Of a stretch of DNA of 55,834 nt, positions 14,551 through 32,760 are shown piece after piece (the stretch's first letter is position 1; each line of letters opens with the position of its first letter). The notes beneath the pieces are model-generated. The model saw only the letters and a list, made by a program, of their open reading frames with translations. It was not told the DNA's origin and searched no databases. Origin of the DNA: Candidatus Krumholzibacteriia bacterium (GTDB lineage: Bacteria; Krumholzibacteriota; Krumholzibacteriia; LZORAL124-64-63); assembly GCA_036351155.1 (NCBI GenBank), contig JAZBOO010000284.1:1-55834 (forward strand), read 5' to 3'. The translations under genes were made by a program, and so were the position numbers.

Positions 14551-14580
14551 TGGATTCCTCCATGCCAGCGTGGGGCTTGA

Positions 14581-16212: not shown

Positions 16213-16241
16213 ATCGTACTCCCAATGAGAACCTTTGTCAA
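16213..16241 (-). promoter_or_regulatory. sigma70 promoter of the htrA-sigma operon
   Basis: TTGACA-N17-TACGAT on the minus strand. Confidence 0.7.
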
Positions 16242-16298
16242 CAGACAATGGCGGACAAAAATTGCCCGCCATTATGCGGCCGGATCCGCAGAAAAGGT

Positions 16299-16817: not shown

Positions 16818-16907
16818 TTTGACGTCCTCCTTGGGGTCCCCGCGGTTGATCCACGGAGCAGGTAATACCGCTTGCGGCAAGCAGTTTGTTGCGTCACATT
16901 AGGAGCC

Positions 16908-17666
16908 ATGTCAAACTCGCAAACACAGCCCAGTGCCCTCTTTGTGGCCGATTCCCACTTCCACCTGCATCCCGACGCAGCGGAGATCCGCCGGGTCGAG
17001 CGCTTCTGTGAGCTGATGGATCTGGCCTGCACGGCAGACCACCTGATCCTGCTGGGCGACATTTTTGACTTCTGGTTCGACTACCCCCACTTCAGGCTGC
17101 GGGGGTATGAAACCATCCTCCAGGCTCTGGACCGGGTCCGAACGGCCGGCACCCACATCCATTTCATCGGCGGCAATCACGACATCTGGGCCGCCGGCTA
17201 CATGCACGAGCGCTACGGTTGCGCCCCCGAGGCGGAACCCCGGATCCTGCACCTGGGTTCCCGCCGGATCATGTTGAACCACGGCGACGGCCTGCTCGGG
17301 TACGACTGGGTTTACAATACCTTCAGGACCATGGTACGCACAAGGCTGGGGATTGTTCTGGCCAAATCACTGCACCCGGAGATCCTGTACGGATTCAGTG
17401 AATGGCTCAGCGGCACCAGCCGGGGCGCCACCAGGGATGAGGCCCACGAGATCGAGGCCAAGGGCCTGGCCTGGCTCCAGGAGAACCATTCCCCCGACTG
17501 GGATCTGCTGGTCATGGGCCACGTTCACCACGCCTTCACCGCCGAACACGAAGGCAAGTCCCTGACCGCCCTGGCCGGCTGGTTCGACACCCTGGGCTAC
17601 GCAATCTGGCAGGACGGGCAGTTCCAGTTGCGGGATTTCGATCGGGATCCCTTGCCCCAGTTCTGA
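16908..17666 (+). CDS. lpxH: UDP-2,3-diacylglucosamine diphosphatase (LpxH-like metallophosphoesterase)
   Basis: ADSHF, LLGDIFDFW, GGNHD, NHGDG and MGHVH; AGGAG RBS. Confidence 0.8.
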   Translation: MSNSQTQPSALFVADSHFHLHPDAAEIRRVERFCELMDLACTADHLILLGDIFDFWFDYPHFRLRGYETILQALDRVRTAGTHIHFIGGNHDIWAAGYMHERYGCAPEAEPRILHLGSRRIMLNHGDGLLGYDWVYNTFRTMVRTRLGIVLAKSLHPEILYGFSEWLSGTSRGATRDEAHEIEAKGLAWLQENHSPDWDLLVMGHVHHAFTAEHEGKSLTALAGWFDTLGYAIWQDGQFQLRDFDRDPLPQF

Positions 17667-17692
17667 AAAACGGGCCGGTAACCCGGCCCGTT
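17666..17692 (-). terminator. Intrinsic terminator between convergent lpxH and porV
   Basis: AACGGGCCGG-TAAC-CCGGCCCGTT hairpin; U-run on the minus strand. Confidence 0.75.
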
Positions 17693-17722
17693 CCTCCACC
17701 GCCTTGTTTTCCGAGCCGTGAC

Positions 17723-18664
17723 TTACCAGACCATGGACAAGCTGAACTTGTGGCCGTCGTCGAACCCGTCGACCTTGGAGTTCTGGTACGCGTAGTCCAG
17801 AGCCATGTTGGGCAGGGGCTTGAAGCCCGCACCGGCCGTCCAGCCCAGCAGGTCGTAGTTGACCCGGGTGCCGCCGCGCAAGGTCAGTTCCGGCAGCAGC
17901 TCCAGTTCGGCTCCGAAGTGGCCCTTTTCCTTGGTGTCGTTGGGGAACGAGATATCGCCGGCCACGGTCAAACGGCCCATGAGTCCCTCACCCACCGGAC
18001 TGTAGGACGCCCCCACCCGGTAGGCCGTGGGCATGGGATAGGGCACGGTGTACAGGTTCATGTCGGAGCCCATGTTGGTGGCCGAGGCCCCGAAGGTCAG
18101 TCCTTCGATCATGGCCTGGTGGCTCAGAAAAAAGTCGAAGGCCAGGCCCGTGTCGGAGTAGATGTCGATCTCGGAATGGATCATCTTGGCCGTCAGACCC
18201 ACCCCGAGGCGCTCACCAATGGCTCGGGCGTAGGACAGGCCGAAGCTGATGTCGTAGGGTTTGAAGGTGCCCTCCACCAGCCCCACGTTCTCTTCACTGC
18301 GCCGGTCAATGGAATCCCAGTAGAGGCCCGAGAACATGAATCCCACCACACCCCCGGCCATCCGGTGGGCCACAGCGGCGGCTTCCTGGTTGGCCGCGCC
18401 CAGGTACCGGTGGTGCTGAAGCACCAGATCGGTCTGGAAATCGGCAAACACGTTGTTGGCCGGGTTCCAGTACAGGGCCGACGCCCCCTGGCTGCTGGCC
18501 ACACCGGCCTCGCCCATGGCGGCTTCCCTTGCCCCCACGCCCAGCCTCAGGAACAGTCCGCCCGACTCGCCGGGACTTCCGGCCCAGGCCGGCACCGAGG
18601 CCAGCACGGTGATCAGGGCCGCGACCAGAAAGATCACTTGGGTATTTTTGCTCAGGCGACGCAT
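17723..18664 (-). CDS. PorV/PorQ family outer-membrane beta-barrel
   Basis: Signal peptide, FLRLGVGAREAAMGEA, ALYWNPA, LDYAY and a C-terminal aromatic residue (W). Confidence 0.85.
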   Translation of the reverse strand: MRRLSKNTQVIFLVAALITVLASVPAWAGSPGESGGLFLRLGVGAREAAMGEAGVASSQGASALYWNPANNVFADFQTDLVLQHHRYLGAANQEAAAVAHRMAGGVVGFMFSGLYWDSIDRRSEENVGLVEGTFKPYDISFGLSYARAIGERLGVGLTAKMIHSEIDIYSDTGLAFDFFLSHQAMIEGLTFGASATNMGSDMNLYTVPYPMPTAYRVGASYSPVGEGLMGRLTVAGDISFPNDTKEKGHFGAELELLPELTLRGGTRVNYDLLGWTAGAGFKPLPNMALDYAYQNSKVDGFDDGHKFSLSMVW

Positions 18665-18759
18665 GGAATCCCTTTCTTCATTGTCCGGTTTGGGCCCCAC
18701 CTCACAGGTGTGGCCCGCTTCAATATGGTTGCGGCATGGCCGGCGGGTAAAGGTGAACT

Positions 18760-21700
18760 TTACCGAACCACCGCCACGCTGATCACGCTGTGGTCGGTGG
18801 CGCCATCGTCGCCCACCAGGGTCAGGCGACAGAAGTACATGCCCGACACGGCCCGGTCCAGATCCAGGCTGATGGAAAACGGTTCCCGAGCCGAGACCGG
18901 CTGCCAGGCGCTGCTCTCGACCAGTTCCCCGCCCAGATTATAGATTTCGGCCCGAGCCCTCCCGGTGCTCCGCGCGCTGGCCCGCACCTGAAGGGGGCCG
19001 CTGAGCAGAGGGCTGGGATAACAGATGTGACTGCCGGAAACCAGACCGGAGCCGCGAGCCGCCGAGGGGTAAGCCGGCCAGGCCGCCCGATCCCAGTTGC
19101 CGTTGTGCCACGGCGAGGCGCCCCACATGGGCCAGGGCGCGCCGGGTTCGGCCACCGCGGACCACAGGCTCAGGGTCGACACCGTGCGGGTGGTCAGCTG
19201 CGCCCCTTCGTCGTCCAGCCCGGAAATACGGTCGAAGGTTCCTGCGGCCACGAGATCCAGGGCTTCCCCGTCCAGGAAATGCCCCAGTGCCGGCGATCCC
19301 GCCGACTCACCCGGCCCGGCCAGAGGCCAGCCGGTCAGGTCCTCGCCCCGCGTCCCCAGACCGAAAATTCGGCCATCCCGCACCGGGAAGAGATACTGGG
19401 AAAGCGGCAGATCCGCATCGGTCAAGGTGCAAACCAGCGGCGCGCTGCCCCAGAGGCTCGGCGCCATGTCCTGACGCGGCCGCACGGGCCAGCCGTCCAG
19501 CCACTCCCCGTTGTGCCCTGCGCGGCCCAGAATCCCATCGCCCACCAGGGCTCCCCCGGCGCTCAGGCCGGTCACCGGGAGCACGCGCTCGTCCCAGGTC
19601 AAGCCAGACAGGATCCGCTCGAATTCACTGTTGAAGACCACGGTTTCGCCCCGACCCATTTCATCCAGGACGACCACGAAGCGCAGCGAGGATTCCGGAT
19701 CCGCATCGCCCACCAGCCCCGTCACCACGGGCCAGGGGCCGGGCACACGGTCCAGGCTGAACCGGGTGCGGTCGGGGTTCTCGGGAATGCTGACCACGAA
19801 GGGGTTGATGGCACGAAGGTGGTGCTCGCCACTGACCGTATCGGCCACCGCCAGCAACATCTGGCCCCAGGCAAAAACGGGCGGAGCGGTGACCCGTACC
19901 GCACCCAGCAAGGCGCTTCCGTGCAGGGTGGGCGTTTGGCCCCGGACCAGACTCAGCAGGGTGCTGTCTCCCTGCTCGCTGATGGTGCAGATCCAGGCAG
20001 GCTCCTGGGCCGAGTACATGCTGTCCGCTTCCACCGGTCGCAGCACCGCGGGCAACAGACAGCCACTCAACGGGTGATACAACCCGAAACTCGAGGCCGA
20101 AAACTCCGCCACCGGAGATCCGTCGTGGTTGAAGGCATAGATGCCGTCGGGGGAGGTGAGCACGATCTCGGCTTCAGGATCATCGTCGATGTTCCCCACC
20201 GCCGGCGGCAGGTTCCAGACCACAGGTTCATCCTGGTAGGTCCCCAGGGCAAAGGGCGCGAAGGTTTCCGGATCGCTGTCGTGATCAAGGAATTCGTCCA
20301 GTCGCCCGTTGAACACCAGCAACTCGCCCGCGTGTCCAGCGGCGATGATTTCCTCGAAGCCGTCCCCGTCCAGGTCGGCCGCCACCAGGTGGCTGCCTCG
20401 CAGATCCAGGCCCTCGGGCAACTGGCGGGAGGCCACAAGCTCGGGCCCTCCCAGCTCGGCCGGCTGTCGGCTGAGCGTGAAGTGCAGGGTGTCGGCATAG
20501 GCCAATCCCATGAGGGTGTCGGGAGGACTCACGCTATTGTCGATCGCCACGATGTAGGCGGCAGAGTCCTGCACCACATTGCTGAAACCGGCGAAGGTGA
20601 TTCCGGTGAAGGCCCCGCCGGCCGACTCGCTGCCGGGACTGGTGAAGGGACCGAAACGGTCATTGTCCTCGCCCCGGAAGCTGTCGTCATCGCCTCCCAG
20701 CTGGAAGGCCGAAGGCACGCGTGAGTCCAGGTCCTGGATGCCGTCGGCTTCCTCCAGGTCCACCGACTTCCGCAACGGATTCGCATTGAACAGATTGCTG
20801 GGCCGGTCGAAAGAATCCAGAATGACGCCCTCATCGATGTGCCACAGATAGACACCGCTGCCCGCCCCCTTGTCCCGGGGACCGCGGGCGCTGTTCTCGC
20901 TCATGAAGAAGTCCCACTCGCTGCCGGCCAGGCGTTCGCGCGTGTCGGTGGCCGGATCGAAGAAGCTGGTGGGTGTGCCGTCGCCAAACTCGGAGTCGGC
21001 ATCGAAGAAATCGGGAATGTTGTTGCCGTTCAGGTCGCCCGGATGAGTGAACCTCCGGTTGCCGTCGGGGTCCTGCAGACGATAGGCCGCCAGATAATAT
21101 TCCTGGCCGGAAATATCCACGCGCAGGGCCGCCTCGGGATCGGCCGTGTTTTCACAGGGGGTCAGAAACAGCTCCTGGGCAGGTCCGGCCACCGCCTCGA
21201 CCGGGTCCAGCCAGCCCATGAGGTACTTGTTGAAGGCGCAGGGATGAGGCGGAATGTACCCCAGGCCAACGAACAGCCCGTAGCCCATCAGACCGAACTC
21301 GCCGATGCCCTGACTGTCCGGGCGCCCCGCGGGCGTGAAATCGGACAGGGACAGCATCCCCAGCCGCAGCCCCACCTCGAAGCAGTAAACGCCCAGGCTG
21401 CCGAAATAACCCCCGAAACCGTCCACCAGATCCTGGTACTCGGTCTCCGGCAGGACCAGCACATGATCCAGTCCCTCGCCCTCGGGGAAATCGTCCGTGG
21501 TCAGGAAGGGCACGGTCAGCTGAGAGTCCTCGACCGCCGACTGAAAATCGTCGGGATCCAGGTAGGTGCTGTATATCTGTTCCGGGGAATCGCCCAGGAT
21601 GTCGGTTTCCTCACCCGCACCGGCATGCACCAGCAGCACGGTGTCGTACAGCGAAAAATCCACGCGGTCATCCAGGAAAGCCACCACTTCCTCGGCCATG

Positions 21701-22218
21701 ACCAGGGGTTGCTCCCCTTCGCTGGGATGATTGCCATAGTAAGCCATGGGGTTGGGCAGATTCACAACTTCGGGCACGATGGTGTAGTTGAAGCTGAAGG
21801 CGCCCCCGCTGACATCGGCGTAGTAGTCGGCCACATCGCGCAGCAGGTGATCGAAGAAAACCGAATCATGCGCGGCATAGTAGATCTCGGTCTGCTGAGG
21901 CGGGGGAAAATCGCCGGGGACCATTCCATAACGCCCGAGCATGAGGCTGTCGCTGAAGTCACACATCAGCAACACGGCTTCGATGGTGGCCGGAGCTTTC
22001 TCGCCGCGCAGACGGCGCGCCTGTAAACCGGCCGAGCCATCGTTGCGCAACGTGAGAGTGCGGGCATCCAGCTGGTCCTGGAGAACCGGGGACAGAGCCT
22101 TGCTTGGCCAGGAAAAACCTGGGTCCTGGACGGGAGACTGCGCCAGCCCCTTCGCTCCGAGGGGAAAGGCCAGGACCAGGATCAAATTCAGAAGGAAAAG
22201 GAAGCGCCGGTTATTCAT
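18760..22218 (-). CDS. Exported immune inhibitor A (M6)-like protein with FG-GAP repeats and T9SS-like C-terminal domain; zinc site degenerate
   Basis: Signal peptide; YYADVSGG, LVHAGAGEE, GIGEFGLMGYG, HPCAFNKYLMGW, YLWHIDE and VDLEEADG; FG-GAP-like ADLDGDGFEEII; CTD-like YPSP...EIYNLGGELV...SGMYFCRL. Confidence 0.82.
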   Translation of the reverse strand: MNNRRFLFLLNLILVLAFPLGAKGLAQSPVQDPGFSWPSKALSPVLQDQLDARTLTLRNDGSAGLQARRLRGEKAPATIEAVLLMCDFSDSLMLGRYGMVPGDFPPPQQTEIYYAAHDSVFFDHLLRDVADYYADVSGGAFSFNYTIVPEVVNLPNPMAYYGNHPSEGEQPLVMAEEVVAFLDDRVDFSLYDTVLLVHAGAGEETDILGDSPEQIYSTYLDPDDFQSAVEDSQLTVPFLTTDDFPEGEGLDHVLVLPETEYQDLVDGFGGYFGSLGVYCFEVGLRLGMLSLSDFTPAGRPDSQGIGEFGLMGYGLFVGLGYIPPHPCAFNKYLMGWLDPVEAVAGPAQELFLTPCENTADPEAALRVDISGQEYYLAAYRLQDPDGNRRFTHPGDLNGNNIPDFFDADSEFGDGTPTSFFDPATDTRERLAGSEWDFFMSENSARGPRDKGAGSGVYLWHIDEGVILDSFDRPSNLFNANPLRKSVDLEEADGIQDLDSRVPSAFQLGGDDDSFRGEDNDRFGPFTSPGSESAGGAFTGITFAGFSNVVQDSAAYIVAIDNSVSPPDTLMGLAYADTLHFTLSRQPAELGGPELVASRQLPEGLDLRGSHLVAADLDGDGFEEIIAAGHAGELLVFNGRLDEFLDHDSDPETFAPFALGTYQDEPVVWNLPPAVGNIDDDPEAEIVLTSPDGIYAFNHDGSPVAEFSASSFGLYHPLSGCLLPAVLRPVEADSMYSAQEPAWICTISEQGDSTLLSLVRGQTPTLHGSALLGAVRVTAPPVFAWGQMLLAVADTVSGEHHLRAINPFVVSIPENPDRTRFSLDRVPGPWPVVTGLVGDADPESSLRFVVVLDEMGRGETVVFNSEFERILSGLTWDERVLPVTGLSAGGALVGDGILGRAGHNGEWLDGWPVRPRQDMAPSLWGSAPLVCTLTDADLPLSQYLFPVRDGRIFGLGTRGEDLTGWPLAGPGESAGSPALGHFLDGEALDLVAAGTFDRISGLDDEGAQLTTRTVSTLSLWSAVAEPGAPWPMWGASPWHNGNWDRAAWPAYPSAARGSGLVSGSHICYPSPLLSGPLQVRASARSTGRARAEIYNLGGELVESSAWQPVSAREPFSISLDLDRAVSGMYFCRLTLVGDDGATDHSVISVAVVR

Positions 22219-22298
22219 GGACTGCCAATCATGCTGGACGTTGAGGGCGAAGCGCTGGATTGCTTCGAGACATTTCAGAAGCCACGGGATCGCCGGGC

Positions 22299-22327
22299 AT
22301 TATAGGAAGGCAGCCCAATCGGGTCAA
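22299..22327 (-). promoter_or_regulatory. sigma70 promoter of the M6-like/porV operon
   Basis: TTGACC-N17-TATAAT on the minus strand. Confidence 0.75.
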
Positions 22328-22409
22328 TCCCAGCCTGCCGCAGGCGTCACGCCCCTATCCTCTCCGCAATTTTCTTCTACGGGCCCTCGGGATATGCTAT
22401 CCTGTCAGG

Positions 22410-22630
22410 TACCGTATTCCGGATCGAACCCGGAAACAAAGTGTCGGGAGAGCCCGAGCGGGGTTCCTGTCACCCCTGATCGACATTGCCCTGCCGGGCT
22501 CTCCCAAGGTGTTGATGTCCCCTGCCGGACGGTTTGCGACCCTTCCCTACTGGCTGCCAACCTCTTCGAGAATCTGGTCCCTCTCCGACCGACGGGTGAT
22601 GGGGGGAAAAACCATCAACACACTTTTTGA
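22410..22630 (+). ncRNA. Candidate structured non-coding RNA of unknown family
   Basis: TGcTATCCT extended -10 at 22395-22403; 11-bp stem 22446-22456/22495-22505; 9-bp stem 22509-22517/22613-22621; terminal T-run. Confidence 0.4.
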
Positions 22631-22650
22631 CCGCGGGTCAAATCCGCGGA

Positions 22651-24513
22651 TTATCGTCTCGTGGTCGAGCCTCCTCGGCTGGACCCTGAACTCTTGCTGC
22701 CACCACTCTTGCTGCCACTGCTCTTGCTGCCTCCGCTGCGGGTGTTCCCGCCGGAGGTCGCACCGCTGCTTTTCGACTTGGGCGCCGATTTCACACGGGG
22801 CGGAGCGGTGGGCTGCTTGTTGCTGGACCCGCTGTTGTTGCTCCGGGGCTTGACCACGGGCTTGCTGTTCCGGCTATTGTTGCGCGGCTGCACCCGGGGC
22901 TTGTCGCTGCCCTGCGTCCTGTTCGACGGCGACCTGAGGTTGCGCTCGGGTTGCTTGGTCTCGGGACGGGTGTTCCAGACCCGGGATCCTCGGCGACGGG
23001 GCTCCACCGGCTTGATGGTCCGCCCACCTTCGGTGGAGCGATCCGGCTTGACCTGGGTACCGCGGGTGGTGTTGTCCCTCTGGGTCCCCGTGCGGGGGTT
23101 GGTCCGCACCGAGCTGCTGCTGCGATCCGGGGCCTGCTCGGTGGGCAAGCGACGCGCGGGCTTGAGGGCCGAACGGGTTTCTCCCCCGCCGGAAGTGTGG
23201 CGGATATTGGTCCGTTGGGTGCCCTCTCCGGTGCGAACACGGGTGTTGTCCTTGATGCGCAGTCCGGCGGATCCCCGCACGTTGGAGGTCCCGGTGATTT
23301 CCGGACGCGCACGATCGGCGCGGGCTTCTCCGCGAATGACGCCGGGCGCTCCGCGACGGCCCAGATCCCGGTCCACGACCCGCCGATTATCGGCCAGCGA
23401 GGTCCGCGCACGCATGGCCTCGCGCTGACGGTCATCGGGACGTTCCTTGCCGATCAGACCGGTCACTCGTCCGAACTCTCGGGTCTTCACCTTGTCGGCG
23501 CGGGCCAGAGCGCTGCGGTCCAGCGGGCGCCAGCGACGGTGCCCGTTGTTGTAATAGGTGTAGCTGTTGCCCCAGTAGTAGGGGGAATCGTACCAGCTGT
23601 AGCAGGAGTAGTTCCAGCGCCAGCCCCAGCCATAGCCGGGAGCACAGCGGTACCAGGGATCGTACCAGAAATTGACCCAGGGACGCGTGGTCCAGGGGTC
23701 CACGTACACGTAGACCGGATTGGCGTAGATGGGATAGTACCCGTACTGGTCATACCAGTTGTTGTTCCAGCCGTAGTCGTACTGGATGTCCAGGGTACAC
23801 TCGTCCTGGTAAGGGTCGTAGGCCACCTCGTCATCGAAATGGCACTGGTTGCACAGGTACCGGGGATGGTCCACCTTCTGGTGGACATAGAAACTGGCGT
23901 AGTTGGTGACCACGAATTCTTCGCTGTCTTCGAGCCCGGTCACCACGAAGTTGATCTCGTTCATGGCCAGGAAAGGATCGCCGGCCACCTGGAAGTCGTA
24001 CCGCTTGGTGGCGTTCTCGTGATGGAAATCAAGTTCCAGTTCACGCAGGTCGAAGGGATACGAGCTGACGATGGCTTCGATGAATCCCTCACCCGGCTCG
24101 TAGCCGGCCTGCAGACGCTTGGCGCCGGCCACGGGCAGCTGGTACTCATGACCACCGAAGGCAAATCCGTCATCGTAGCGAGTGCGCGGCCACAGGATGT
24201 CCACCATCCCGTTGGCGTCGATCCGGTATACCACAGCGTAGGCATCCTGATTGGTCTGGAAACCCACGGTGTAGTAGTCCCCGCGTTGTAGCACCGCCCC
24301 ATCGTCCTGGCCTTCCAGCCAGACACCCACCCGCAGGGTCTGGGCGCTGTAATCGAAACTGCTGGCGGCTTCAGTTGCCTCGTCCTGGGCCTGCACCGTG
24401 GCAGGACCGACCAGACCGAGCAGCAACACGGCCAGGGCCAACAGACAGCTCCCACCCACGGTGGCATTCCACCGGGCCGTCTTCGCGTCTTTCAGCTTTA
24501 TCCTGTTTTGCAT
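22651..24513 (-). CDS. Secreted DUF4384-like protein with CxxCH motif, Y/W-rich segment and basic disordered tail
   Basis: AAGGAG RBS; signal peptide ending VQA; VGFQTNQDAYAVVYRIDANGMVDILWP resembles DUF4384; YLCNQCH. Confidence 0.75.
   Translation of the reverse strand: MQNRIKLKDAKTARWNATVGGSCLLALAVLLLGLVGPATVQAQDEATEAASSFDYSAQTLRVGVWLEGQDDGAVLQRGDYYTVGFQTNQDAYAVVYRIDANGMVDILWPRTRYDDGFAFGGHEYQLPVAGAKRLQAGYEPGEGFIEAIVSSYPFDLRELELDFHHENATKRYDFQVAGDPFLAMNEINFVVTGLEDSEEFVVTNYASFYVHQKVDHPRYLCNQCHFDDEVAYDPYQDECTLDIQYDYGWNNNWYDQYGYYPIYANPVYVYVDPWTTRPWVNFWYDPWYRCAPGYGWGWRWNYSCYSWYDSPYYWGNSYTYYNNGHRRWRPLDRSALARADKVKTREFGRVTGLIGKERPDDRQREAMRARTSLADNRRVVDRDLGRRGAPGVIRGEARADRARPEITGTSNVRGSAGLRIKDNTRVRTGEGTQRTNIRHTSGGGETRSALKPARRLPTEQAPDRSSSSVRTNPRTGTQRDNTTRGTQVKPDRSTEGGRTIKPVEPRRRGSRVWNTRPETKQPERNLRSPSNRTQGSDKPRVQPRNNSRNSKPVVKPRSNNSGSSNKQPTAPPRVKSAPKSKSSGATSGGNTRSGGSKSSGSKSGGSKSSGSSRGGSTTRR
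22691..22735. repeat. Three 15-bp tandem repeats within the CDS, encoding G/S-G-S-K-S units
   Basis: ctcttgctgccacca / ctcttgctgccactg / ctcttgctgcctccg. Confidence 0.85.
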
Positions 24514-24546
24514 GGCTGCACGCTCCTTTGCTGGAAACATGACCGA

Positions 24547-25575
24547 TCAAAAACTGATCGTCATGGGCTTGAGATCATGAGTCGCGGGCTTCTCCGGAAC
24601 GGAAAGTTCGGGCAGACCGGCAATGGTCTGGTAAGCCCAGATGATCCCCACGGAATTGCTGGTGATGGCCGTCACTCCGAACTTGGCGTAATGGATACCG
24701 GCGATCGGGTCGTCAATTCTCAGGACATAGATATGTCCGATGATGAGTTCCATGGTCCCGGTGGACGAGTAGCCACCGGCCGGGGCATAGGACACGCCCT
24801 CGAAGATCAGGTAATTTTCACTGTCCAGGAAGACGCCGAAATCCTGGATTTCCACACCGAGGTGATTGGTCTGGACGTAGGGGACGTTACCCTGGAAAGC
24901 AATGCGGATGTCTGCGGTGTTCCCGGGGGCCGTGGGATCAACCCGTCCGTCTTGCAGACGGCTGAAATCCCATCCGGCCAGTGCGGGGTTCACGTTGACA
25001 TCGAAGACTTCGGTGGCGTCCAGATTCATGGGCAACGGCGCATCGATGACGAACTCGTAGCTGAGTGCGCTTTCACGCCCCGCTTCGTTCACAGCCGTGA
25101 CGGCATACTCGTACTCCTCGCCATTGACGGCGAGGTCATCGTAGAAAAAATGAAGACCGGAACTGGAGTCGAAATTCTCATCCCAGGCCACCTCGCCGAT
25201 GTAGGAGAACTCGCGATCGGGAATGTCCTCATCGCCCGGCGTGTAATAACGGCTGTAAACATAGTAGGCCACCACGTTGGGGTTGTAGCGGCCGTCATAA
25301 GGATGATAGGACAGGTCGTACCACTGAACAATCACCAGGTTGTCCCCGCTGATACTGTGGACCCCGGTGGGCACCACGGGCGAGGGCAATTCGATGCAGT
25401 TGACGCAATCATCGGATTCACAACCGCTCAGCAAACCCAGCAGTAAAAAGATGCTAAGGGCCAGAAGGGTTCCACGGACCCTGAAAATCCGTGGATTGCG
25501 GGTATGGGCGCGACGGCCATGCCGTCCGGCAAAGAACTGATCCACCACTTTTCTTTGGCCTGAAAATTTGCTCAT
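24547..25575 (-). CDS. Lipoprotein with FN3-like domain and possible HmuY-like C-terminal domain
   Basis: GGAGG RBS; lipobox LLSGC; FN3-like PTGVHSISGDNLVIVQW...YEYAVTAVNEAGRES; C-terminal HYAKF...WAYQ. Confidence 0.7.
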   Translation of the reverse strand: MSKFSGQRKVVDQFFAGRHGRRAHTRNPRIFRVRGTLLALSIFLLLGLLSGCESDDCVNCIELPSPVVPTGVHSISGDNLVIVQWYDLSYHPYDGRYNPNVVAYYVYSRYYTPGDEDIPDREFSYIGEVAWDENFDSSSGLHFFYDDLAVNGEEYEYAVTAVNEAGRESALSYEFVIDAPLPMNLDATEVFDVNVNPALAGWDFSRLQDGRVDPTAPGNTADIRIAFQGNVPYVQTNHLGVEIQDFGVFLDSENYLIFEGVSYAPAGGYSSTGTMELIIGHIYVLRIDDPIAGIHYAKFGVTAITSNSVGIIWAYQTIAGLPELSVPEKPATHDLKPMTISF

Positions 25576-25651
25576 CCCTTGAACCTCCTGGCCCGAACTG
25601 AACTCGCGGCCTCTCCTTGGCTGTTCTTCCTGCCATTCTCACCATGTATCA

Positions 25652-25667
25652 GGCAGACTTCGTGCCA
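25652..25667 (-). promoter_or_regulatory. sigma54 (-24/-12) promoter of the lipoprotein-DUF4384 operon
   Basis: TGGCACGAAGTCTGCC versus consensus TGGCACG-N4-TTGC; exact GG-N10-GC spacing, ~77 bp upstream of the ATG. Confidence 0.8.
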
Positions 25668-25947
25668 GGAGGGTGGCAATTGTTCAGGGAAGTTACATCA
25701 GGAAAAATGGAGTGAGGGCCGGAGGGAAAAAGCGGGCAACCAGAATACACATTTCTTTATTTTACAACGTCTTGACAAAATCCAAGAAAGCTCAGCCATC
25801 GCTGAAGATGATCCATCTGGGACGAACCAGGTCCCCCGCGATCGGGACAACGGTCCCACCGGACCAGCTCCTGCTGATCGCTAACTGGGACACCATCTCC
25901 AAAAAAGGACACAATGGGAGGGAGAAAGAAGGTTATCGGTAGGCATG

Positions 25948-26018
25948 AAAAAAGAGCCCCGCCTTGCGGCTACCCGTTCTTGAATCTCGCCTTTTCAAGA
26001 ACAGAAGGGCTCTTTATT
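25948..26018 (-). terminator. Three-way-junction RNA element ending in a U-run (terminator-like)
   Basis: Outer stem AAAGAGCCC/GGGCTCTTT; inner stems GTTCTTGAA/TTCAAGAAC and GCC-GCAA-GGC; ends in a run of six U on the minus strand. Confidence 0.7.
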
Positions 26019-26258
26019 TCGAGGATCCGGTGATCAGATCCAGATTTTATTCGTGTTTCGGGAGAAAGGTCCCGAGTTCTCTCTCATCGGCCGAGAATAA
26101 TTGTTAAGACCCCACCTCTTCACAATCATCCAGCCGACACTTCTTGATGAGAACTTCCTCTTCGCCGGTAAGCAGTTGAGGAAAAAAACCTCGACTCTCC
26201 CGAAAACACGAAACTCGTTCAACTTGGAAGAGGATCCCTGTAACTCACCCCTTCAACA
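25948..26258 (-). ncRNA. Candidate sigma54-dependent structured RNA (~310 nt), possibly also encoding a 17-31 aa peptide
   Basis: Bounded by the sigma54 promoter (26269-26284) and the terminator-like element; long-range inverted repeat 26050-26065/26196-26212. Confidence 0.55.
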
Positions 26259-26268
26259 CACGGCATAT

Positions 26269-26284
26269 TGCACGACGCATACCA
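26269..26284 (-). promoter_or_regulatory. sigma54 (-24/-12) promoter directly downstream of the TPR activator gene
   Basis: TGGTATGCGTCGTGCA on the minus strand; GG-N10-GC spacing; AT-rich upstream region. Confidence 0.6.
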
Positions 26285-26516
26285 GAAACCCTCTTTTGCC
26301 AATAAATGTTAAGTCTTATGTTGACAACATGTTACGAGGAACGGGACACCTCTTGATTCCACTGCACGGCAGAGGGTTATTAAATGTTTTTATAGTTTTT
26401 CAGGCAAAAAAATAACCCGTTGCCAAACAACGAGTTAAGGTATAAAAAAAAAGACCAGCCCAACCGAAGAATGCCCTTCAAATTAACAGTTCAGGCACCC
26501 GGAATGAGCCGGGACC

Positions 26517-29500
26517 TCAAGAAGCAATGCCGTAATGCTTGATCTTCTTGAGCAGGTTGGGGTAGCTGACCTTGAGCAGACGGGCTGCGGCGGACTTGTT
26601 CCCCGCGGACACCTTCAGGGCGCGCTCGATCTCCCGGCATTCGATCCCCGCCAGGGTCTCCTTCAGCGGGACCACTCGACCACTTTCCGATGATTCGGGC
26701 GCGGAATGGAACTGGGTGAACTCCCGGGGCAGGTGCTGCGGTCTCAACACACCATCGCCCTGGGCCAGAACGATGGCCCGCTTCAACGTTTTCTCCAGCT
26801 CGCGAATATTCCCGGGCCAGGAGTGGTGCACCAGCAGGTCCATGAACACCCGATCCAGCGCCAGAGGAGCCGTGCCGAGTTCCTGGCAGAATCGCTGGCT
26901 GAAGTGCCGAGTCAGCAACTCCACGTCGTCGGCCCGTTCACGCAGCGGTGGAATGGTCAGGGGGAAGTCCACGAGGCGATAGTAAAGATCCTCGAGGAAC
27001 CCACCGGTCCGGGAGCGCGCATGAAGATCGGTCTTGGAGGCGGCCACGATGCGGACATCGACCTTGGTTTCCCTGTTGCTGCCCACCGGGCGCACCGACT
27101 TGGTGTCCAGAAAATGCAGGAGCTTGCCCTGCATGGCCAGCGGCATCTTGCCGATCTCATCCAGGAACAGGGTTCCACCCTGAGCCTGGACCAGCAGCCC
27201 CTTCTTGTCGTTGTCGGCGCCGGTGAAGGCACCCTTGACGTGCCCGAACAGCTCACTTTCGAGGAGACTGTCAGGAATGGCCGCACAGTTGATGGACAGG
27301 AATTCCTTGTCCGCCCGCTTGCTCAAGGCATGAATGGAGTAGGCCAGCAGCCCCTTGCCGGTGCCCGTTTCCCCGTTCAGCAGGACGGTCAAGTCGCTGG
27401 GCGCCACTTTCTGGGCCAGAGCCAGAACTTCCAGCATTTTGCTGTTCTGGGTGATGATGTTCTCGAAGCTTTCAATGCGCTCGATGGGGGTGGAAACAGC
27501 AGAACCCCCGGAAGACCGCCCCTTCTCGAAAAGGAACAGGGCCAGGAACCCCATGTAAGTGGCCAGGAAGTCCAGGGCCGCACGGTCAAAACCGCCCTTG
27601 CCCCGTTCCGCCGCAGCCTTGCCCAGGAAAAGCAACCCGAATTGCCGCCCGTGCAGCGCGATGGGCATGAACACGCAGCTGGCGGCAACCGACCCCAGGG
27701 CGGGCACTTTCTCAAGAAGGTCATCGTGCTCGGCCAGTCGGGAGAACAGGGTGGTTCCGCTCCGCCGTCCACTGGCCAGCTCGGCATCGAACCAGCGGGT
27801 CAATTGCTGGGCCAGGTTGTCGGTCAAGCCACGGCGCGCGGTGATCCGCAAGCCGGCTCCCGGCACCTGATCGTCCAGCATCGCAATGAATCCGTGGTCG
27901 GCCTGCACCCTCTCCAGCCCGGCATCGAGGATGGTTTCCAGGTTGCGGGGAACCGAAGTGTCGGTGCGGGCAAATAGCCCCGGCAAGCCGGAAATGGCCT
28001 GCAGGTGGCTTTCCGCGCTACCCACTCCGGTCAAGAGGCCGGACTCGATCATGTCCCGCAGCCGCACCACCTGGAGGCTGAGTTTCTCGTCATCCAGGCC
28101 GGTGGCGTGGCGTTCGAACTCGAACACGGTCAACAGGGCATCGTCGAACTGCCGCAGGTGAACCTGGATATGGGCCAGCTGATCCAGTACCCGGCACAGC
28201 ATGTGGTCGCTGACCTGGTTGGCCCCACTCTCCTGGGCATCCATCAGGTAACGGCGCAGAAGCAGCAGCAGACCCTCATCGGCGGTTTCGCGCCGGATAT
28301 CGGCGTAGCGGATGATGGTCTGGCACCAGAGGTGGTTCAAGCGCTGTTCGGAAAAGGTGGCGATGGCTTCGCGGAAGTGGTGGTCCACCTGCTGCAGATC
28401 ATTCTGGGCGGCATAGGCCCGACCCAGCACACTGTGACAGAAGCCCAGCTCGTAGAGCTCACCGCATTGTTCACAGACCGCGATGGCCGCCTGGCTGACA
28501 GCCACGGCATCTTCCAGCTCGCCGGCCGCCAGATGGGCCTCGCCAATGCGGCGCAGCAACTCACCCTCGAGATCGTTGCCCACGGCAATGCGGCGGCTCT
28601 TGTCCAGACCCAGCTGGTAATTGAACTGGGCCTTCTCGACCTGCCCCCGGGACAGCAGAATATCGCCCAGGTACTCGTCACAGATGGTGGCTTCCCGCAG
28701 GTACTGGTATTCCTCGGACAGGGTCTTGGCCGCCAGAACCAGCTCTTCGGCCCGAGCCAGTCGTCCCGACTGGATTTCCAGCCGCCCCATGGCCAGGCTC
28801 AGGCGGGCCTGATGCTGGACATCGCCCAGAGACTGGGCCAGCCGCAAACCTTTTTCCAGGTAGGGCCGGGCCTCTCCCAGGCGTTCGATCTTGGTCAGGA
28901 TGATCCCCTGATTCAGGTAGAAACGGGGCAGCAAATGGCTGGCACCGATCTGCTCGGCCAGGCTGAGGGCCTTGTCCATGAGGGACTGAGCCTGATCCCA
29001 GTGGCAACGGTTCTTGTGCAGGAGGGCCAGGTTGTTCAGCAGGTTGGCCACACCCAGGTCGTTGCCGATCCGGCGAAAGGTGGCCAGGCTGTCGCTGTAG
29101 AATTCTTCAGCTTTTTCCATCCGTCCCAGACGATAGTGGACAATGCCCATGCCTGCCTGGAGTCGGGCCACATCGGCGTGTTCGTCGGTCAGGGCCAGAA
29201 CGGAAAAAGCGGACTTGGAAACCTGGAGCGAGTCCTGGAGCTGGCCGCGCTCGCGGTGGACCACCGCTTGCCGCACCTGAAAAACGGCCTTCTGCACGGT
29301 CATTTCGGGCCCGGCGCCGGCGTCGGCGCTGGCACGGATCAGATCCAGGGCCTCGTTGATCAGATGCTGAACCTGGTGGTAATCGCCGAGAAGGATGTTG
29401 GTGTCGGTGGCCTTGCGCAGAACATTCAAAGCCCGATCGAGCGGCAATTGCACCAGAATCTGGTCATCCAGCAGCTGACGGTAGTAGTCGAGAGCCGACG

Positions 29501-29630
29501 AATAGGCCGAGGCGTGGAAATGCAAGTCTCCCACTTCCTCGAGTCGGGCCCAGTCCACCTGACGGGCAGAAGCCTCCATCGGGTGTTGTTCGGGGTCAAA
29601 CCTGTGATTTCCGTCCTGGTACTCTCGCAT
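26517..29630 (-). CDS. sigma54 enhancer-binding protein with long TPR array, GAF-like domain, AAA+ domain and Fis-type HTH
   Basis: TPR-like helices (e.g. [22 protein letters not shown]); [37 protein letters not shown] and [10 protein letters not shown]. Confidence 0.93.
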
Positions 29631-29683
29631 CAACCGTATCCCTTGGCGAGTCAGTGGATCGGTGACAGTTTTTTTGCTGCCTC

Positions 29684-29705
29684 AAGGGCCGCCAGAGCGG
29701 CCCTT
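29684..29705. other. GC-rich hairpin at the 3' end of the small secreted protein gene
   Basis: AAGGGCCGC-CAGA-GCGGCCCTT; no U-run follows on the coding strand. Confidence 0.6.
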
Positions 29706-30039
29706 AGGGCATCAGCATGAACTGCAACATCTTCAGGTAGATGAATTGTGAGAAATCCATCGTGTCGTCATCACCCAGGAATCCGCCAAACAGATTGAAC
29801 AGATCGGATTCGCCGGCGCGCGCGCCGTATCCGCCGCCCACACTGTCGGGATCGCCTTCACCACCGTCGGTGGGCCCACCCAGACTGTCGCTGACATCAT
29901 CCTCGGTGTTCTGATACACCGTGGTTCCGTCTTCCAGTGTGGGAAGGCCTGCTAACGACGCGTGAATGGGCTGGGCCGAAACGACGGTCAGCAGCACGAG
30001 TGCCACCAACATGATCGTTCCCTGCATAACCCTCGTCAT
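29704..30039 (-). CDS. Small (111 aa) secreted acidic Gly/Asp-rich protein with hydrophobic C-terminus
   Basis: AAGGAG RBS before ATG 30039; signal peptide MTRVMQGTIMLVALVLLTVVSAQPIHA; core GGEGDPDSVGGGYG; tail FSQFIYLKMLQFMLMP. Confidence 0.75.
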   Translation of the reverse strand: MTRVMQGTIMLVALVLLTVVSAQPIHASLAGLPTLEDGTTVYQNTEDDVSDSLGGPTDGGEGDPDSVGGGYGARAGESDLFNLFGGFLGDDDTMDFSQFIYLKMLQFMLMP

Positions 30040-30185
30040 TTTGCTCTCCTTCACGGACTGCACCCCGTCTTGCCTTTTTTTGAAAACCCGCGCGCCTCCA
30101 TGCCCGAGCCGCGTCAGATCGTAAGTTCCCCTTTGAACCCTATATTTAAGGATGCTCTCAAGTCTGGTCAAGCCTTTTGGCCCGG

Positions 30186-31550
30186 TCAATCCTCGTTTCC
30201 TGGCTGGGTTCGCAGTCCGTACTTGGTGATTTTCTTGTACAGGTTACTGCGCTGCATCCCCAGCTTTTCTGCCGTCTTGCTCACATTATAGAGGTTTTCT
30301 TTCAACTTGTGTTGCAGAAAAGCAGTTTCACTCTCCGATTTGAAATCCTGGAAATCCCGGCAGGCGAAAAAGGACGGCTGCTGGGACACGGCGCTGGCGG
30401 CCCCTGGCAAAAGAGGCAGATCCGCCGGTTTGACCACGTCGCCAGGACACAGAATCAGCAGTCTTTCCACCAGGTTACGCAATTCACGAACATTTCCCGG
30501 CCAGGAGTATTCTCGCAAAATGGCCATGGTTTCCGCAGAAAAAGTACGGGGTGGGGAATTGAGCTTGACCCCGAGATCGGCCATGAACCAGTCCAGGAGC
30601 AATTCCACATCGCCGGGGCGTTCCCGCAGGGGCGGCAAATGGACAGACAGGACGTTCAGGCGGAAAAAGAGATCCTGGCGGAATCCCGACTCAGGGGCCG
30701 AAAGATCCCGGTTTGTGGCCGCCACGATGCGGACATCGACCTCCCGGGTCTCGCTGCCGCCCACCCGCTGGAAGCGGTTTTCTTCCACCGCCTTGAGAAC
30801 CTTGGCCTGGGCTTCGGGATTCATGTCGCCGATTTCATCCAGAAACAGCGTGCCGCCATCGGCCTGCTCGAATTTCCCCACCCGCTGACGATCGGCACCG
30901 GTGAAGCTCCCCCGCTCGTGCCCGAACAACTCGCTTTCCACCAGTTCGTGGGGGATGGCGGCGCAGTTGACCTCGACCAGGGGTCGGTCGGCCCGACGGC
31001 TGGCCTGGTGAATGGACCCCACCACCAGTTCCTTGCCCGTCCCGTTCTCGCCCGTCACCAGGATGGTGCCATCGCTGGCCGCCACCTTCTCGATGAACTG
31101 ACGCACCTGCTGCATGGGAGGACTTTGCCCGACGAGGGGGCTGGCGATGGCCGTCTGTTCCTGCAAGATGCGCCGATCCGAGAGAACCTGGAAATGCTCC
31201 AGGCAATTGCGGAGACTGACCAGAAGCCGGGATCGATCCAGGGGCTTCTCCAGATAGTCGTAGGCTCCCTTCTTGACCGCTTCGACAGCGGTTTCGATGG
31301 TGCCGTGCCCCGAGATGACGATCACCGGGACCCGCGGCTTGTCGGGCCCCAGCTTGGCCAGGACCTCGAAACCGTCCATCTGGGGCATCTTGATATCCAG
31401 CAGCATGACATCAGGCTGCTTCTTGTCGACCAGCTCAAGGGCCTCGGCACCTGACCCCGCCTTGAGGACAGCATAGCCCTCGTAGCTCAGGATCTGTTCG
31501 AGGGTCTCCCTGATGGCCAGTTCGTCGTCGACGATGAGTACGGACTTCAC
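30186..31550 (-). CDS. NtrC/NtrX-type sigma54-interacting response regulator
   Basis: Receiver LIVDDE, LLDIKMP and ISGHG; GENGTGKE, GHERGSFTGA, LFLDEIG and C-terminal HTH. Confidence 0.93.
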   Translation of the reverse strand: MKSVLIVDDELAIRETLEQILSYEGYAVLKAGSGAEALELVDKKQPDVMLLDIKMPQMDGFEVLAKLGPDKPRVPVIVISGHGTIETAVEAVKKGAYDYLEKPLDRSRLLVSLRNCLEHFQVLSDRRILQEQTAIASPLVGQSPPMQQVRQFIEKVAASDGTILVTGENGTGKELVVGSIHQASRRADRPLVEVNCAAIPHELVESELFGHERGSFTGADRQRVGKFEQADGGTLFLDEIGDMNPEAQAKVLKAVEENRFQRVGGSETREVDVRIVAATNRDLSAPESGFRQDLFFRLNVLSVHLPPLRERPGDVELLLDWFMADLGVKLNSPPRTFSAETMAILREYSWPGNVRELRNLVERLLILCPGDVVKPADLPLLPGAASAVSQQPSFFACRDFQDFKSESETAFLQHKLKENLYNVSKTAEKLGMQRSNLYKKITKYGLRTQPGNED

Positions 31551-31676
31551 AGGTCATCCTTGCGGATTGAAGGAAAATGAGGGTTATATGGGCGGCAGGA
31601 ACACCCGCCGACAGTGAATCTGCACCTGGCGGCAGGCCGCTGTCAAGACCATAACCCCGTGCCGAAAACAGGATTC

Positions 31677-32726
31677 ATGAAACCCCTCATCCGCTCCCTG
31701 GTTCCCGCCGAGCTGGCCCGTCTGGTGGCCGAGTCCGGGCTGCCCCCTTTCCGACTGCGCCAGCTGTCTGAATGGCTGTACCCCCACGCCGCCTGGCAAT
31801 GGGACACCATGTCCAACCTCCCTCGCAACCTTCGCGACCGCCTGGCCCAGGATTTCGATCTGGCCGGTCTCGAGCTGCAGGAGCGTCAGGTCTCGGAAGA
31901 TCGCACCCGCAAGTTCCTGTTTCGTCTGCGGGACGGCAGCACCATCGAAAGCGTGATCATTCCCACCGGAGACCATCCTACCTTCTGCCTGTCGACCCAG
32001 GTGGGATGTGCCATGGCCTGCCGGTTCTGCGCCACGGCTCGGGGTGGGCTGGTACGCAATCTGGAGCCCGGAGAAATCATCGAGCAGATTCAGCGCCTGG
32101 AACAGGATCTGAAGGCCGAGCCGGTGCCCGGCCTGGGCGGCAAGCAGCACAACGTGGTTTTCATGGGGATGGGTGAACCCCTGGACAACTGGCCGGCCAT
32201 GGCCGCCAGCCTGGAGATCATGACCCACGAGCAGGCACTGGGCCTTTCCCGCCGGCGCATCCAGATTTCCACCAGTGGTCCCCGCGAGGGGCTGGAGCTC
32301 CTTCTGGCGGCGGCACCCGGCGTGGGCTTGACCCTGAGCCTGGGCGGAAGCGATGACGCCGAGCGCAAGAAGGTCATGCCCGTTCCTGGCCGCACCCCGG
32401 TGACCGAGGCGGTGGATCTGGCGGCCCGCTACGCCAAGGTGACCGGGCGCCGCGCCACCCTGGCCTGGGTGCTGATCAAGGGCAGCACGGACAAGCTGGA
32501 GCAGGCCGCCCGCCTGGTCAAGCTGGCCCGGCGGGGCAACTTCAAGGTGAATCTCATTCCCCTGAATCCCCTGGACGACATCGATCTGGAACGACCCGAG
32601 GAAAAGGGCACCCTGGCCTTCCAGGAAGTTCTGACCGCCGCGGGCATCGACACTTTTATTCGACTGAGCGGCGGGCGTGATATTGCGGCGGCTTGCGGGC
32701 AGCTGCGTCGGCGGCGTGGAGCCTGA
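31677..32726 (+). CDS. rlmN: Dual-specificity RNA methyltransferase RlmN (radical SAM)
   Basis: STQVGCAMACRFC, MGMGEPL and DIAAACGQL. Confidence 0.92.
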   Translation: MKPLIRSLVPAELARLVAESGLPPFRLRQLSEWLYPHAAWQWDTMSNLPRNLRDRLAQDFDLAGLELQERQVSEDRTRKFLFRLRDGSTIESVIIPTGDHPTFCLSTQVGCAMACRFCATARGGLVRNLEPGEIIEQIQRLEQDLKAEPVPGLGGKQHNVVFMGMGEPLDNWPAMAASLEIMTHEQALGLSRRRIQISTSGPREGLELLLAAAPGVGLTLSLGGSDDAERKKVMPVPGRTPVTEAVDLAARYAKVTGRRATLAWVLIKGSTDKLEQAARLVKLARRGNFKVNLIPLNPLDDIDLERPEEKGTLAFQEVLTAAGIDTFIRLSGGRDIAAACGQLRRRRGA

Positions 32727-32730
32727 GGAC

Positions 32731-32760
32731 AAAAAAACTCCGGGCCCATGAGGCCCGGAG
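32731..32760 (-). terminator. Intrinsic terminator of the Rrf2 gene, convergent with rlmN
   Basis: CTCCGGGCC-CATGA-GGCCCGGAG hairpin with seven U on the minus strand. Confidence 0.8.

Follow-up and report, generated by a model that had tools for sequence, protein, structure and literature searches.

We describe a two-gene regulatory cassette in a 55,834-nt stretch of DNA (contig JAZBOO010000284.1 of GenBank assembly GCA_036351155.1; hereafter the window) from a Candidatus Krumholzibacteriia bacterium of the phylum Krumholzibacteriota. A small protein with a predicted Sec-type signal is encoded directly upstream of a predicted cytoplasmic sigma-54 enhancer-binding protein (EBP) whose N-terminal region is an array of tetratricopeptide repeats (TPRs), and by sequence the genome carries at least three paralogous cassettes of this build, each consisting of a small GDPxD-type protein and a downstream TPR EBP. 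This fits a dedicated partnership of an exported, disordered small protein with the TPR input domain of sigma-54 activators. We put at about 50% the probability that the small protein, or a peptide from it, is the input to these activators, through a binding that we infer. Sigma-54 activators sense phosphorylation, small molecules or partner proteins; a small-protein/TPR-EBP pairing that is phylum-wide and multi-copy would, if true, add a new input class to the EBPs.

All coordinates are positions in the window, and all listed features lie on its minus strand at the positions stated. The order on that strand is a response-regulator activator, a 111-aa signal-peptide open reading frame (ORF), the TPR activator, two sigma-54 promoters (P1 and P2) and a lipoprotein gene. 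The small exported protein (29704..30039; 111 aa from ATG), known from its ORF, alignment, AlphaFold2 (AF2) model and RNA-library contigs, is followed after a 70-nt spacer by the activator ORF (26517..29633; 1038 aa from TTG, or 1037 aa from ATG one codon on), in agreement with an earlier, sequence-only reading of the window that had placed a 111-aa secreted-protein gene about 70 bp upstream of, and co-oriented with, a 1037-aa activator. Directly 3' of the small-ORF stop lies a GC-rich hairpin without a U-tract (29686..29703), and hairpins of differing sequence were seen by eye at the same position in many related loci. Immediately 5' of the activator start, a leader box, CCACTGA-CTCGCC-AAGGGA (29639..29657), is conserved in related loci.

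Pfam assigns TPR_12 (6.8e-32; matched in 36/36 orthologues), TPR_MalT, Sigma54_activat (1.1e-64, residues 726-892), AAA_lid_14 and HTH_8 (1.8e-8) to the activator. Its AAA+ domain has Walker A, Walker B (LFLDEIG) and GAFTGA all intact and, together with HTH_8, the single rpoN of the window genome and the nearby -24/-12 promoters, this places the protein among the sigma-54 EBPs. No signal peptide or membrane segment was seen by eye. Residues 565-699 match GAF_2 at 26.1 bits, below the cut-off of 28.6; 11 of the 36 orthologues match it at E<=1e-3, and a PDB sequence search with this region gave no match; the label 'GAF-like' is weakly supported and is the weakest item of our description. Of the domains named in the sequence-only reading, the TPR, GAFTGA-bearing AAA+ and HTH parts are thus borne out by Pfam and AF2, the GAF-like part weakly.

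The pairing occurs across the phylum. At E<=1e-25, 191 of the 201 genomes examined have the TPR domain, with few exceptions in one copy, and so do 124 of the 125 that are of high quality; the nearest named record is a Candidatus Krumholzibacteria metagenome-assembled genome (MAG). The response-regulator and TPR genes have a small ORF between them in 59/59 assessable records, which comprise 38 genomes of the first sets, the named MAG and 20 further genomes (G002 and G007, cut by contig ends, and G010, which was not fetched, are outside the 59). The response-regulator EBP gene is the upstream neighbour of the cassette throughout, and synteny is held in the family and class loci. In genome G038 (locus L041:5956-7848) the TPR protein is a stand-alone 529-aa ORF without the GAF-like, AAA+ or HTH parts, and even so a 95-aa signal-peptide ORF with GDDD precedes it; downstream of this TPR ORF, cytochrome and molybdopterin-oxidoreductase-like genes take the place of the small RNA (sRNA) and lipoprotein gene found elsewhere. 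The window cassette is a single-copy, vertically inherited core module of the phylum, not an accessory one. As a side observation, the activator orthologue of the named MAG (L023:4200-7096) is in three pieces in different frames (query residues 68-630, 608-788 and 786-1036), which points to frameshifts or assembly errors in that record.

Across the 59 records the small protein is 91-119 aa long (median 107) and its orthologues are 15-28% identical to the window protein, which is single-copy in its genome. The N-terminus is hydrophobic and uncharged with AXA-like sites: a hydrophobic uncharged stretch of at least 10 residues within the first 40 is found in 59/59 records, an AXA-like site in 58/59 and a K/R n-region in 52/59. 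Net charge is negative in 52 of the 59 (median -11), and every one carries a GD[PADG]x motif, at a median position of residue 59 of 107. In a 38-row alignment M1, G62 and D63 are invariant (GDPDS in the window protein) and G70 is kept in at least 90%. AF2 with the 38 relatives (mean pLDDT, the predicted local distance difference test, 67) gives a helix at 2-21, no structure over 22-78, and helices at 79-88 and 96-109, describing a signal-peptide helix, a disordered and acidic central part and an amphipathic helix at the C-terminus. We found no family in Pfam or NCBIfam, no usable ESM Atlas match and no solved relative, and the window protein has no Cys lipobox. Two further readings were set aside. 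Asp-Pro bonds can undergo self-cleavage, and families f2-f5 have GDAD or GDDD without the Pro; for PEP-CTERM-type sorting, considered in view of PMC1569441, the motif stands too far from the C-terminal helix (30-50 residues) and no NCBIfam sorting-signal model matched.

Further TPR activators of the phylum, 818-915 aa long, were collected from 18 loci in 17 genomes; the ten scanned by Pfam all have TPR, Sigma54_activat and HTH_8 and lack GAF. A GDPxD ORF lies upstream in 17 of the 18 loci (15 full signal-peptide ORFs, one with a non-ATG start and one cut by a contig end but showing the motif), the encoded proteins measuring 104-145 aa, and only locus L096 is without one. In the window genome (G000), small exported ORFs precede 3/3 TPR-EBPs versus 0/16 other EBPs that have their 5' side present; seven more EBPs are cut by contig ends and fall outside the 16. 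The two further cassettes of this genome lie outside the window, on C26 (L088:1187-4064) and C227 (L089:3096-5985). Genome-wide, 3 of 181 signal-peptide-like small ORFs carry GDP.D or GDPG[DGST], a search pattern outside which the window's own GDPDS lies, and two of these three precede TPR-EBPs. When the profiles of the main and the paralogous small proteins were compared by hhalign, the only shared segment was the nine-column xxEGDPxDx (probability 81.5%, E 1.1e-5). An 855-aa frame on contig C202, considered as a fourth EBP with a long N-terminus, was rejected: it is over-extended across an antisense peptidase gene, and its real start is at a PAS-like region.

The two genes of the cassette also vary together. 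We grouped the paralogs by their AAA+ loop into type B (without GAFTGA and Walker B), type C (G[SA][FY]SGA) and type D (GA[YF][TS]GA). The small proteins carry EGDPGDG[VN]L in 8/8 type B cassettes, EGDP[LT]DxND in all five of type C and GDP[DI]DG[DE][HR] in three of type D, and most family-f1 small proteins of the main type have GDP[DG]xxGxG. In a tree of the N-terminal region, types A, B and C are each one branch (support of 100, 100 and 99 in the Shimodaira-Hasegawa-like approximate likelihood ratio test, SH-aLRT) and D is a grade; this TPR-region tree is a quick one whose careful search was unfinished. The C227 cassette is of type B (8 loci), in which the GAFTGA loop and the Walker B acidic pair are lost; because of this loss, activators of type B are probably ATPase-dead and act by some way other than sigma-54. 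The co-variation of AAA+ loop and small protein speaks for two genes that have long depended on each other, rather than for binding itself. The sequence-only reading had proposed to ask whether a small exported ORF is consistently adjacent to homologues of the TPR activator and co-varies with it; adjacency holds in 59/59 records and at 17/18 paralogous loci, and the flanks of the small-protein motif differ by TPR clade.

The TPR domain itself has the form of a long superhelix. AF2 models activator residues 1-540 with a pLDDT of 92.3 and a predicted template-modelling score (pTM) of 0.87, all-helical over residues 18-539, which hold about 13 repeats. By sequence, the TPR profile matches kinesin light chain first (5e-22), with LGN/Pins, TONSOKU and OGT also among the best; AfsR (3e-8), Rap (2e-7 to 2e-6) and NprR (1e-5) come later. 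By structure, the best solved matches of the model in Foldseek (E 3e-9 to 1e-7) are TONSOKU, LGN/Pins, subunits of the anaphase-promoting complex (APC) and OGT. LGN/Pins, TONSOKU and OGT are superhelices like the TPR model, and their solved complexes have an extended peptide in the channel (TONSOKU with the H3 tail; LGN/Pins with NuMA, Inscuteable (Insc) or Frmpd), but they are eukaryotic scaffolds at 12-19% identity and the likeness is one of fold class only.

In the canonical TPR register, helix-A positions 2, 5, 6 and 13 face the groove, and it is at these positions of four repeats that most of the conserved TPR residues fall, which would put them on the concave face. N241, K248, R313, E320, G323, A335, D354 and R362 are identical in 18/18 paralogs, E358 and E395 in 17/18 and R361 in 16/18; the row that deviates at E358, R361 and E395 is L096, the locus without a small ORF, which has by far the longest branch. 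A complex prediction with activator residues 1-720, small-protein residues 23-111 and alignments scored 0.01 against a mark of 0.32; we take it as no verdict and use it neither way. The absence of a peptide-binding groove had been named in the sequence-only reading as grounds for giving up the idea of peptide sensing. The long superhelix and its peptide-holding look-alikes speak for a groove, and its residues are placed by sequence register only; neither this check nor the one on adjacency refutes peptide sensing.

A sigma-70-like promoter, TTGACC-N17-TAAATA (30143..30171), was read from the sequence 5' of the small ORF, and TTGAC-N17-TAnAAT-like elements were seen by eye at this place in most related loci; no locus has a sigma-54-like site scoring >=9 before the small ORF. 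RNA-library contigs, from two metatranscriptome runs of one microbial-mat sample and identical to the window, cover the small ORF (29715-29885 and 29865-30026). A further contig (29578-29774) joins the 3' end of the small ORF, across hairpin and spacer, to the 56 nt with which the activator ORF begins, showing read-through from one ORF into the other. Within 24500-31600 such contigs cover the small-ORF region and the sRNA only, and the uncovered parts are no evidence on expression of the activator, regulator or lipoprotein gene.

On the other side of the activator, the pattern TGGYAYGNNNNNTGC matches twice in the 55.8-kb window (26284..26270 and 25667..25653), both times on the minus strand and in the 940-bp gap that follows the activator. 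By chance 0.69 matches are expected, and two or more occur in 11 of 100 shuffles; the count alone is therefore marginal, and the promoter case rests on position. P1 (TGGTATGCGTCGTGCA, 26269..26284) has a counterpart scoring at least 9 of 12 at 175-370 nt past the activator stop in 34/39 loci (the exceptions are L023, L032, L041, L051, with a score of 8, and L055). P2 (TGGCACGAAGTCTGCC, 25652..25667) has one at the start of the lipoprotein gene in 17/17 loci, and in 28/28 at a score of >=8. The two GG-N10-GC promoters that the sequence-only reading had placed right downstream of the activator are therefore present, and their position is conserved across loci.

Candidate enhancers were found by eye upstream of both. 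About 100 nt 5' of P1 is an AT-rich palindrome-like element, CTATAAAAACATTTAATAA (26376..26396), and related loci have TGTAAA/TATAAA-N5-6-TTAATAG elements, often two, 5' of P1. GC-rich repeats (TGTGTCC...TGTCCCA; TGTCCC-N6-GGGGGAC) lie about 165-245 nt 5' of P2 (25831..25913), and at the matching position related loci have GTCCCC-N4-GGGGAC and TGTCCCaCAnnTCGCACA. These differing upstream elements fit two different activators, and the locus encodes two. In addition, a hairpin with a T-run follows the activator stop (26430-26475), and many family loci have it flanked by two copies of the AT-rich element 5' of P1.

Downstream of P1 there is no credible ORF. The 292-361 nt past P1 are conserved in 21 family loci and end in a terminator-like module, and in the window we predict a sigma-54-dependent structured sRNA of about 310 nt (25947..26258) from covariation, a covariance model and RNA-library contigs; its 5' end is predicted from P1, not mapped, and its 3' end is a composite terminator whose T-run reaches about 25948. 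RNAalifold gives 55 pairs, 41 of them with compensatory changes. Over the central 159 positions, 89.4% of cells pair, compared with 74.4% in shuffles and 31-50% in slid-partner controls; 23 of 27 pairs change on both sides, and 0/500 shuffles reach any measure. Two RNA-library contigs fall inside the predicted sRNA (25974-26240, at a depth of 13.8, and 26072-26240). It thus has the features of an sRNA in its own right, namely its own -24/-12 promoter and a discrete, structured and terminated transcript, the ends being predicted. Rfam gave nothing relevant on the window at gathering score or on 25500-26600 at E up to 10 (a suhB-like hit of 19.7 bits and Ocean-VII at 12.1 bits are far sub-threshold).

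A covariance model of the central part has exactly one match per genome in 62 of 150 phylum genomes. By family, the matches cover 53/59 genomes of f1 and 8/9 of f6; with strict filters none is found in other families, and by eye f2, f3 and f4 hold diverged versions. By coordinate comparison, 58 of the 62 matches share contig and strand with the TPR gene and come 3.29-3.51 kb downstream of where the TPR match starts; in the other four genomes the TPR gene is at a contig edge (three) or there is no TPR match (one).

Two loops of the sRNA are invariant in the alignment, GGUGGGG (loop 1, 26116..26110) and GGCGAGA (loop 2, 25991..25985). The CTCGCC of the activator leader box is the reverse complement of GGCGAG in loop 2, and CCACU can pair with GGUGG in loop 1. 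Among all 30-nt windows of a locus, the leader is in the top 5% for loop-2 pairing in 19/25 loci (median 2.4%), and CTCGCC is within the best-pairing leader window in 20/25. In family f4 the sRNA ends before the loop-2 module, and the leader has CTCGAGG or no box. A feedback of the sRNA on the activator leader, of LuxO-Qrr type, is plausible on these sequence grounds, and we would lean mildly against it. Genome-wide counts of short motifs such as CCACNNNCTCGCC and GGCGAGAYYC, tried in a search for sRNA targets, were dropped as too common to inform. Separately, the 5' untranslated region of the small ORF has a conserved GACGGGGTG element just before the Shine-Dalgarno (SD) sequence (30045-30075), seen in many family loci; it is similar, not complementary, to the conserved GAAGGGGTGA near the 5' end of the sRNA.

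In the mechanism that we propose, a sigma-70-type promoter would transcribe the small gene, with read-through into the gene for the activator. The concave channel of the TPR superhelix would take the small protein, or a GDPxD-bearing fragment of it, as its cognate ligand, whose presence there would switch the AAA+ motor. The two EBPs of the locus would drive P1 and P2, each of which has different upstream enhancer-like repeats. P1 would give rise to the sRNA as an abundant transcript and P2 to a surface operon of lipoprotein and type IX secretion system (T9SS) type, while the invariant sRNA loops would pair with the CCACU/CUCGCC box at the ribosome-binding region of the activator and close a LuxO-Qrr-type feedback. 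The binding form may be a re-imported processed peptide, as in the RRNPP systems, or an unexported precursor that would couple the circuit to secretion. The binding of the small protein to the TPR domain, its binding form, the assignment of EBPs to promoters and the pairing of sRNA and leader are all steps that we infer. The most elaborate version, in which Krumholzibacteria carry several Sec-exported pro-peptide cassettes per genome whose products are processed outside, re-imported and read by the TPR channels of sigma-54 EBPs, with a feedback sRNA and a surface operon as output, we consider doubtful.

Several points weigh against a ligand role. Ligand and receptor are predicted to be in different compartments because the small protein has a Sec-type signal and the EBP has neither a signal nor a membrane segment, and the idea presupposes a way back. 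Of 121 genomes, 120 have an Opp/Dpp-type binding protein, which is at most permissive; the same search is positive in 11 of 14 control genomes and so says little. The small proteins are about twice the typical length of an RRNPP propeptide and retain the helix at the C-terminus, which hints that they act as proteins, and their signal peptides were called by hydrophobicity and AXA heuristics, not by SignalP. The groove-facing placement of conserved residues comes from the TPR register, not from coordinates. Since the genomes are kin, the counts are of non-independent events; tandem duplication and vertical descent alone would yield clade-specific signatures without contact, and the core motif, being identical in all paralogs, cannot be the specificity determinant. 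The RNA contigs, from one sample, give no transcript ends, strand or level. The complementarity of loops and leader extends over just 6-7 nt, and such words are common in this GC-rich genome.

The small protein might instead act in the envelope only, for example as a QseG-like kinase accessory that feeds the upstream response regulator, and never meet the TPR domain, the two genes being co-transcribed for co-regulation alone. Its signal peptide and C-terminal amphipathic helix would suit such a role, as would the response-regulator EBP gene that always adjoins upstream and the envelope genes that follow downstream; moreover, the same elements, an exported small protein in a sigma-54 EBP locus beside a sigma-54 sRNA, occur in glmY-qseE-qseG-qseF, as excerpts of PMC6075780 and PMC8745638 describe it. 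Yet in the window genome the small ORF keeps company with TPR-type EBPs only, it recurs with the paralogous TPR-EBPs and it stays with the stand-alone TPR protein of G038. Nor was a kinase domain found in the neighbouring ORFs scanned, and the lipobox of a QseG-type protein is missing from the window protein. We therefore rate an envelope-only role as unlikely, if less so than the two alternatives that follow.

A good deal less probable is that the small ORF acts in cis as a secretion-monitoring leader, in the manner of SecM, VemP or MifM; how far it is translated and exported would then set translation of the activator, and its product would serve no separate function. Its position upstream and co-oriented, its signal peptide and short conserved motif and the hairpin after its stop are all in keeping with this, and the small ORFs of the paralogs stop anywhere between 27 nt short of the longest possible EBP frame and 158 nt within it, a spacing that would permit coupling. 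However, such arrest leaders have their conserved arrest motif next to the stop and a secretion component as the downstream gene, whereas here the motif is mid-protein, some 40-50 codons before the stop in the window, and the regulated gene is an EBP. An SD-sequestering alternative hairpin in the window spacer was dropped from consideration after it was not found by eye in two other loci. An arrest leader would also leave the exclusive link to TPR proteins and the conserved groove residues unexplained. Least probable of all, and to our mind very improbable, is that the two genes have no functional tie, the small ORF being a conserved neighbour or a partly mis-called frame: DNA of 63% GC holds many spurious ORFs and the protein has no found family, fold or solved relative, but its frame, length, signal pattern and motif are kept in 59/59 records at 15-28% identity, the pairing recurs in paralogs and RNA-library contigs cover the ORF.

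The genes downstream of the cassette are envelope genes. Upstream, the NtrC-type response-regulator activator (30186..31550; 454 aa, REC-AAA+-HTH_8) matches Response_reg at 1.8e-33 and Sigma54_activat at 4.8e-66 in Pfam, and directly 5' of its gene a 382-aa ORF (31584-32732) has no Pfam or NCBIfam match. The first gene behind P2 encodes a 342-aa lipoprotein with an LSGC lipobox (24547..25575), which lies class-wide downstream of the activator and belongs to no Pfam or NCBIfam family. It is followed on the same strand (17723..24540; Pfam and NCBIfam) by genes for a DUF4384 protein (629 aa), a protein resembling the T9SS-dependent inactive M6 metalloprotease (1152 aa) and a PorV/PorQ-family protein (325 aa), and the spacing suggests that the lipoprotein gene and these genes form one operon. 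Further envelope genes at 10985-18700 on the minus strand encode PorV/PorQ-family, HtrA/DegP protease, M23 peptidase and AmiC-type amidase (AMIN and LysM) proteins, and the same region encodes a 284-aa sigma-70-family factor with regions 1.2-4. In run X1 one DNA contig connects 27173 directly with 30915, leaving out 3741 nt, and has only 22 letters on one side of the join; as each activator gene contributes one end, within its AAA+ domain, this is probably an assembly chimera of paralogous segments.

Should the ligand be a re-imported peptide, peptide signalling would be carried into a diderm lineage and the cassettes would form the first RRNPP-like family there. Few parts are involved (one small gene, one activator and two promoters), which makes the proposal testable in a heterologous host. 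With the locus comes a sigma-54 sRNA that is expressed, typical of the phylum and has a defined candidate target, and the regulation of surface (T9SS-type) genes would become approachable for the first time in an uncultured phylum. Full-text literature searches (TPR with EBP or sigma-54; RRNPP with Gram-negative or sigma54), which excluded supplements, gave no report, among the papers listed, of TPR-type EBPs paired with exported small proteins, and the portions of a 2025 sigma-54 regulon survey available to us contain no such pair. Within the literature searched, the pairing of an exported small protein with a TPR-EBP thus appears to be undescribed.

The closest known likeness is with the RRNPP systems (Rap-Phr, NprR-NprX, PlcR-PapR, PrgX and AimR-AimP) of Firmicutes and phages, to which the sequence-only reading had likened the cassette. 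Excerpts of PMC10075063 describe peptide signals with TPR receptors as a trait of Gram-positive Firmicutes and mobile elements and give a five-part signature that we adopted: a propeptide of 10-100 aa, secreted through Sec (as called by SignalP), a receptor of about 250-500 aa, TPRs in the receptor and genes that are direct neighbours. Here the receptor has TPRs and the two genes are direct neighbours; by hydrophobicity and AXA heuristics, Sec export of the small protein is likely. The small proteins, at 91-119 aa (median 107) and 104-145 aa in the paralogs, run beyond the propeptide range, and the receptors, at 1038 aa and 818-915 aa in the paralogs, exceed the receptor range, the 529-aa protein of G038 coming nearest. 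With two of the five features absent, membership of RRNPP is unsupported: the pair is not an RRNPP member, but may work like one. As in RRNPP, the gene for a small protein with a predicted Sec signal adjoins that of a cytoplasmic TPR regulator, and a genome may have several such paralogous cassettes, in which a short conserved region borders on sequence particular to each cassette; the TPR profile also has weak sequence matches to Rap and NprR. In contrast, the receptor is an 818-1077-aa sigma-54 AAA+ activator rather than a 250-500-aa repressor, activator or phosphatase. The small protein (91-145 aa) is encoded upstream, keeps its C-terminal helix and is known from sequence, its mature peptide being hypothetical. 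The host is likely diderm, judged from its T9SS/PorV-type genes, and the main cassette is core, single-copy and vertically inherited. The best structural neighbours of the TPR model, too, are LGN/TONSOKU/OGT-type superhelices and not RRNPP receptors.

On the output side, excerpts of PMC2632942 describe how a sigma-54 EBP, LuxO, activates Qrr sRNAs that pair at the ribosome-binding region of its own mRNA, and excerpts of PMC10162802 that two EBPs can act on one qrr promoter. Our locus is alike in that a sigma-54 EBP would drive an sRNA predicted to pair with EBP mRNA, but LuxO, a response regulator in a phosphorelay, takes its input from membrane receptors of small-molecule autoinducers, where the activator here has a TPR-GAF-like input, and unlike Qrr the sRNA is about 310 nt long and has no Rfam match. 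The glmY-qseE(glrK)-qseG-qseF(glrR) locus of Enterobacteriaceae likewise combines a small exported protein and a sigma-54 sRNA at an EBP locus with envelope output (excerpts of PMC6075780 and PMC8745638), but QseG is a lipoprotein on the periplasmic side of the kinase QseE, whereas the cassette has no kinase gene and no lipobox and the proposed partner is a cytoplasmic TPR array. In the Pxr/nla19 locus of Myxococcus, according to excerpts of PMC5568312, a multi-stem-loop sRNA gene with its own sigma-54 promoter also lies just 3' of a sigma-54 EBP gene; there, however, the EBP Nla19 is a response regulator, Pxr is about 108 nt long and no small exported protein is involved in the account given.

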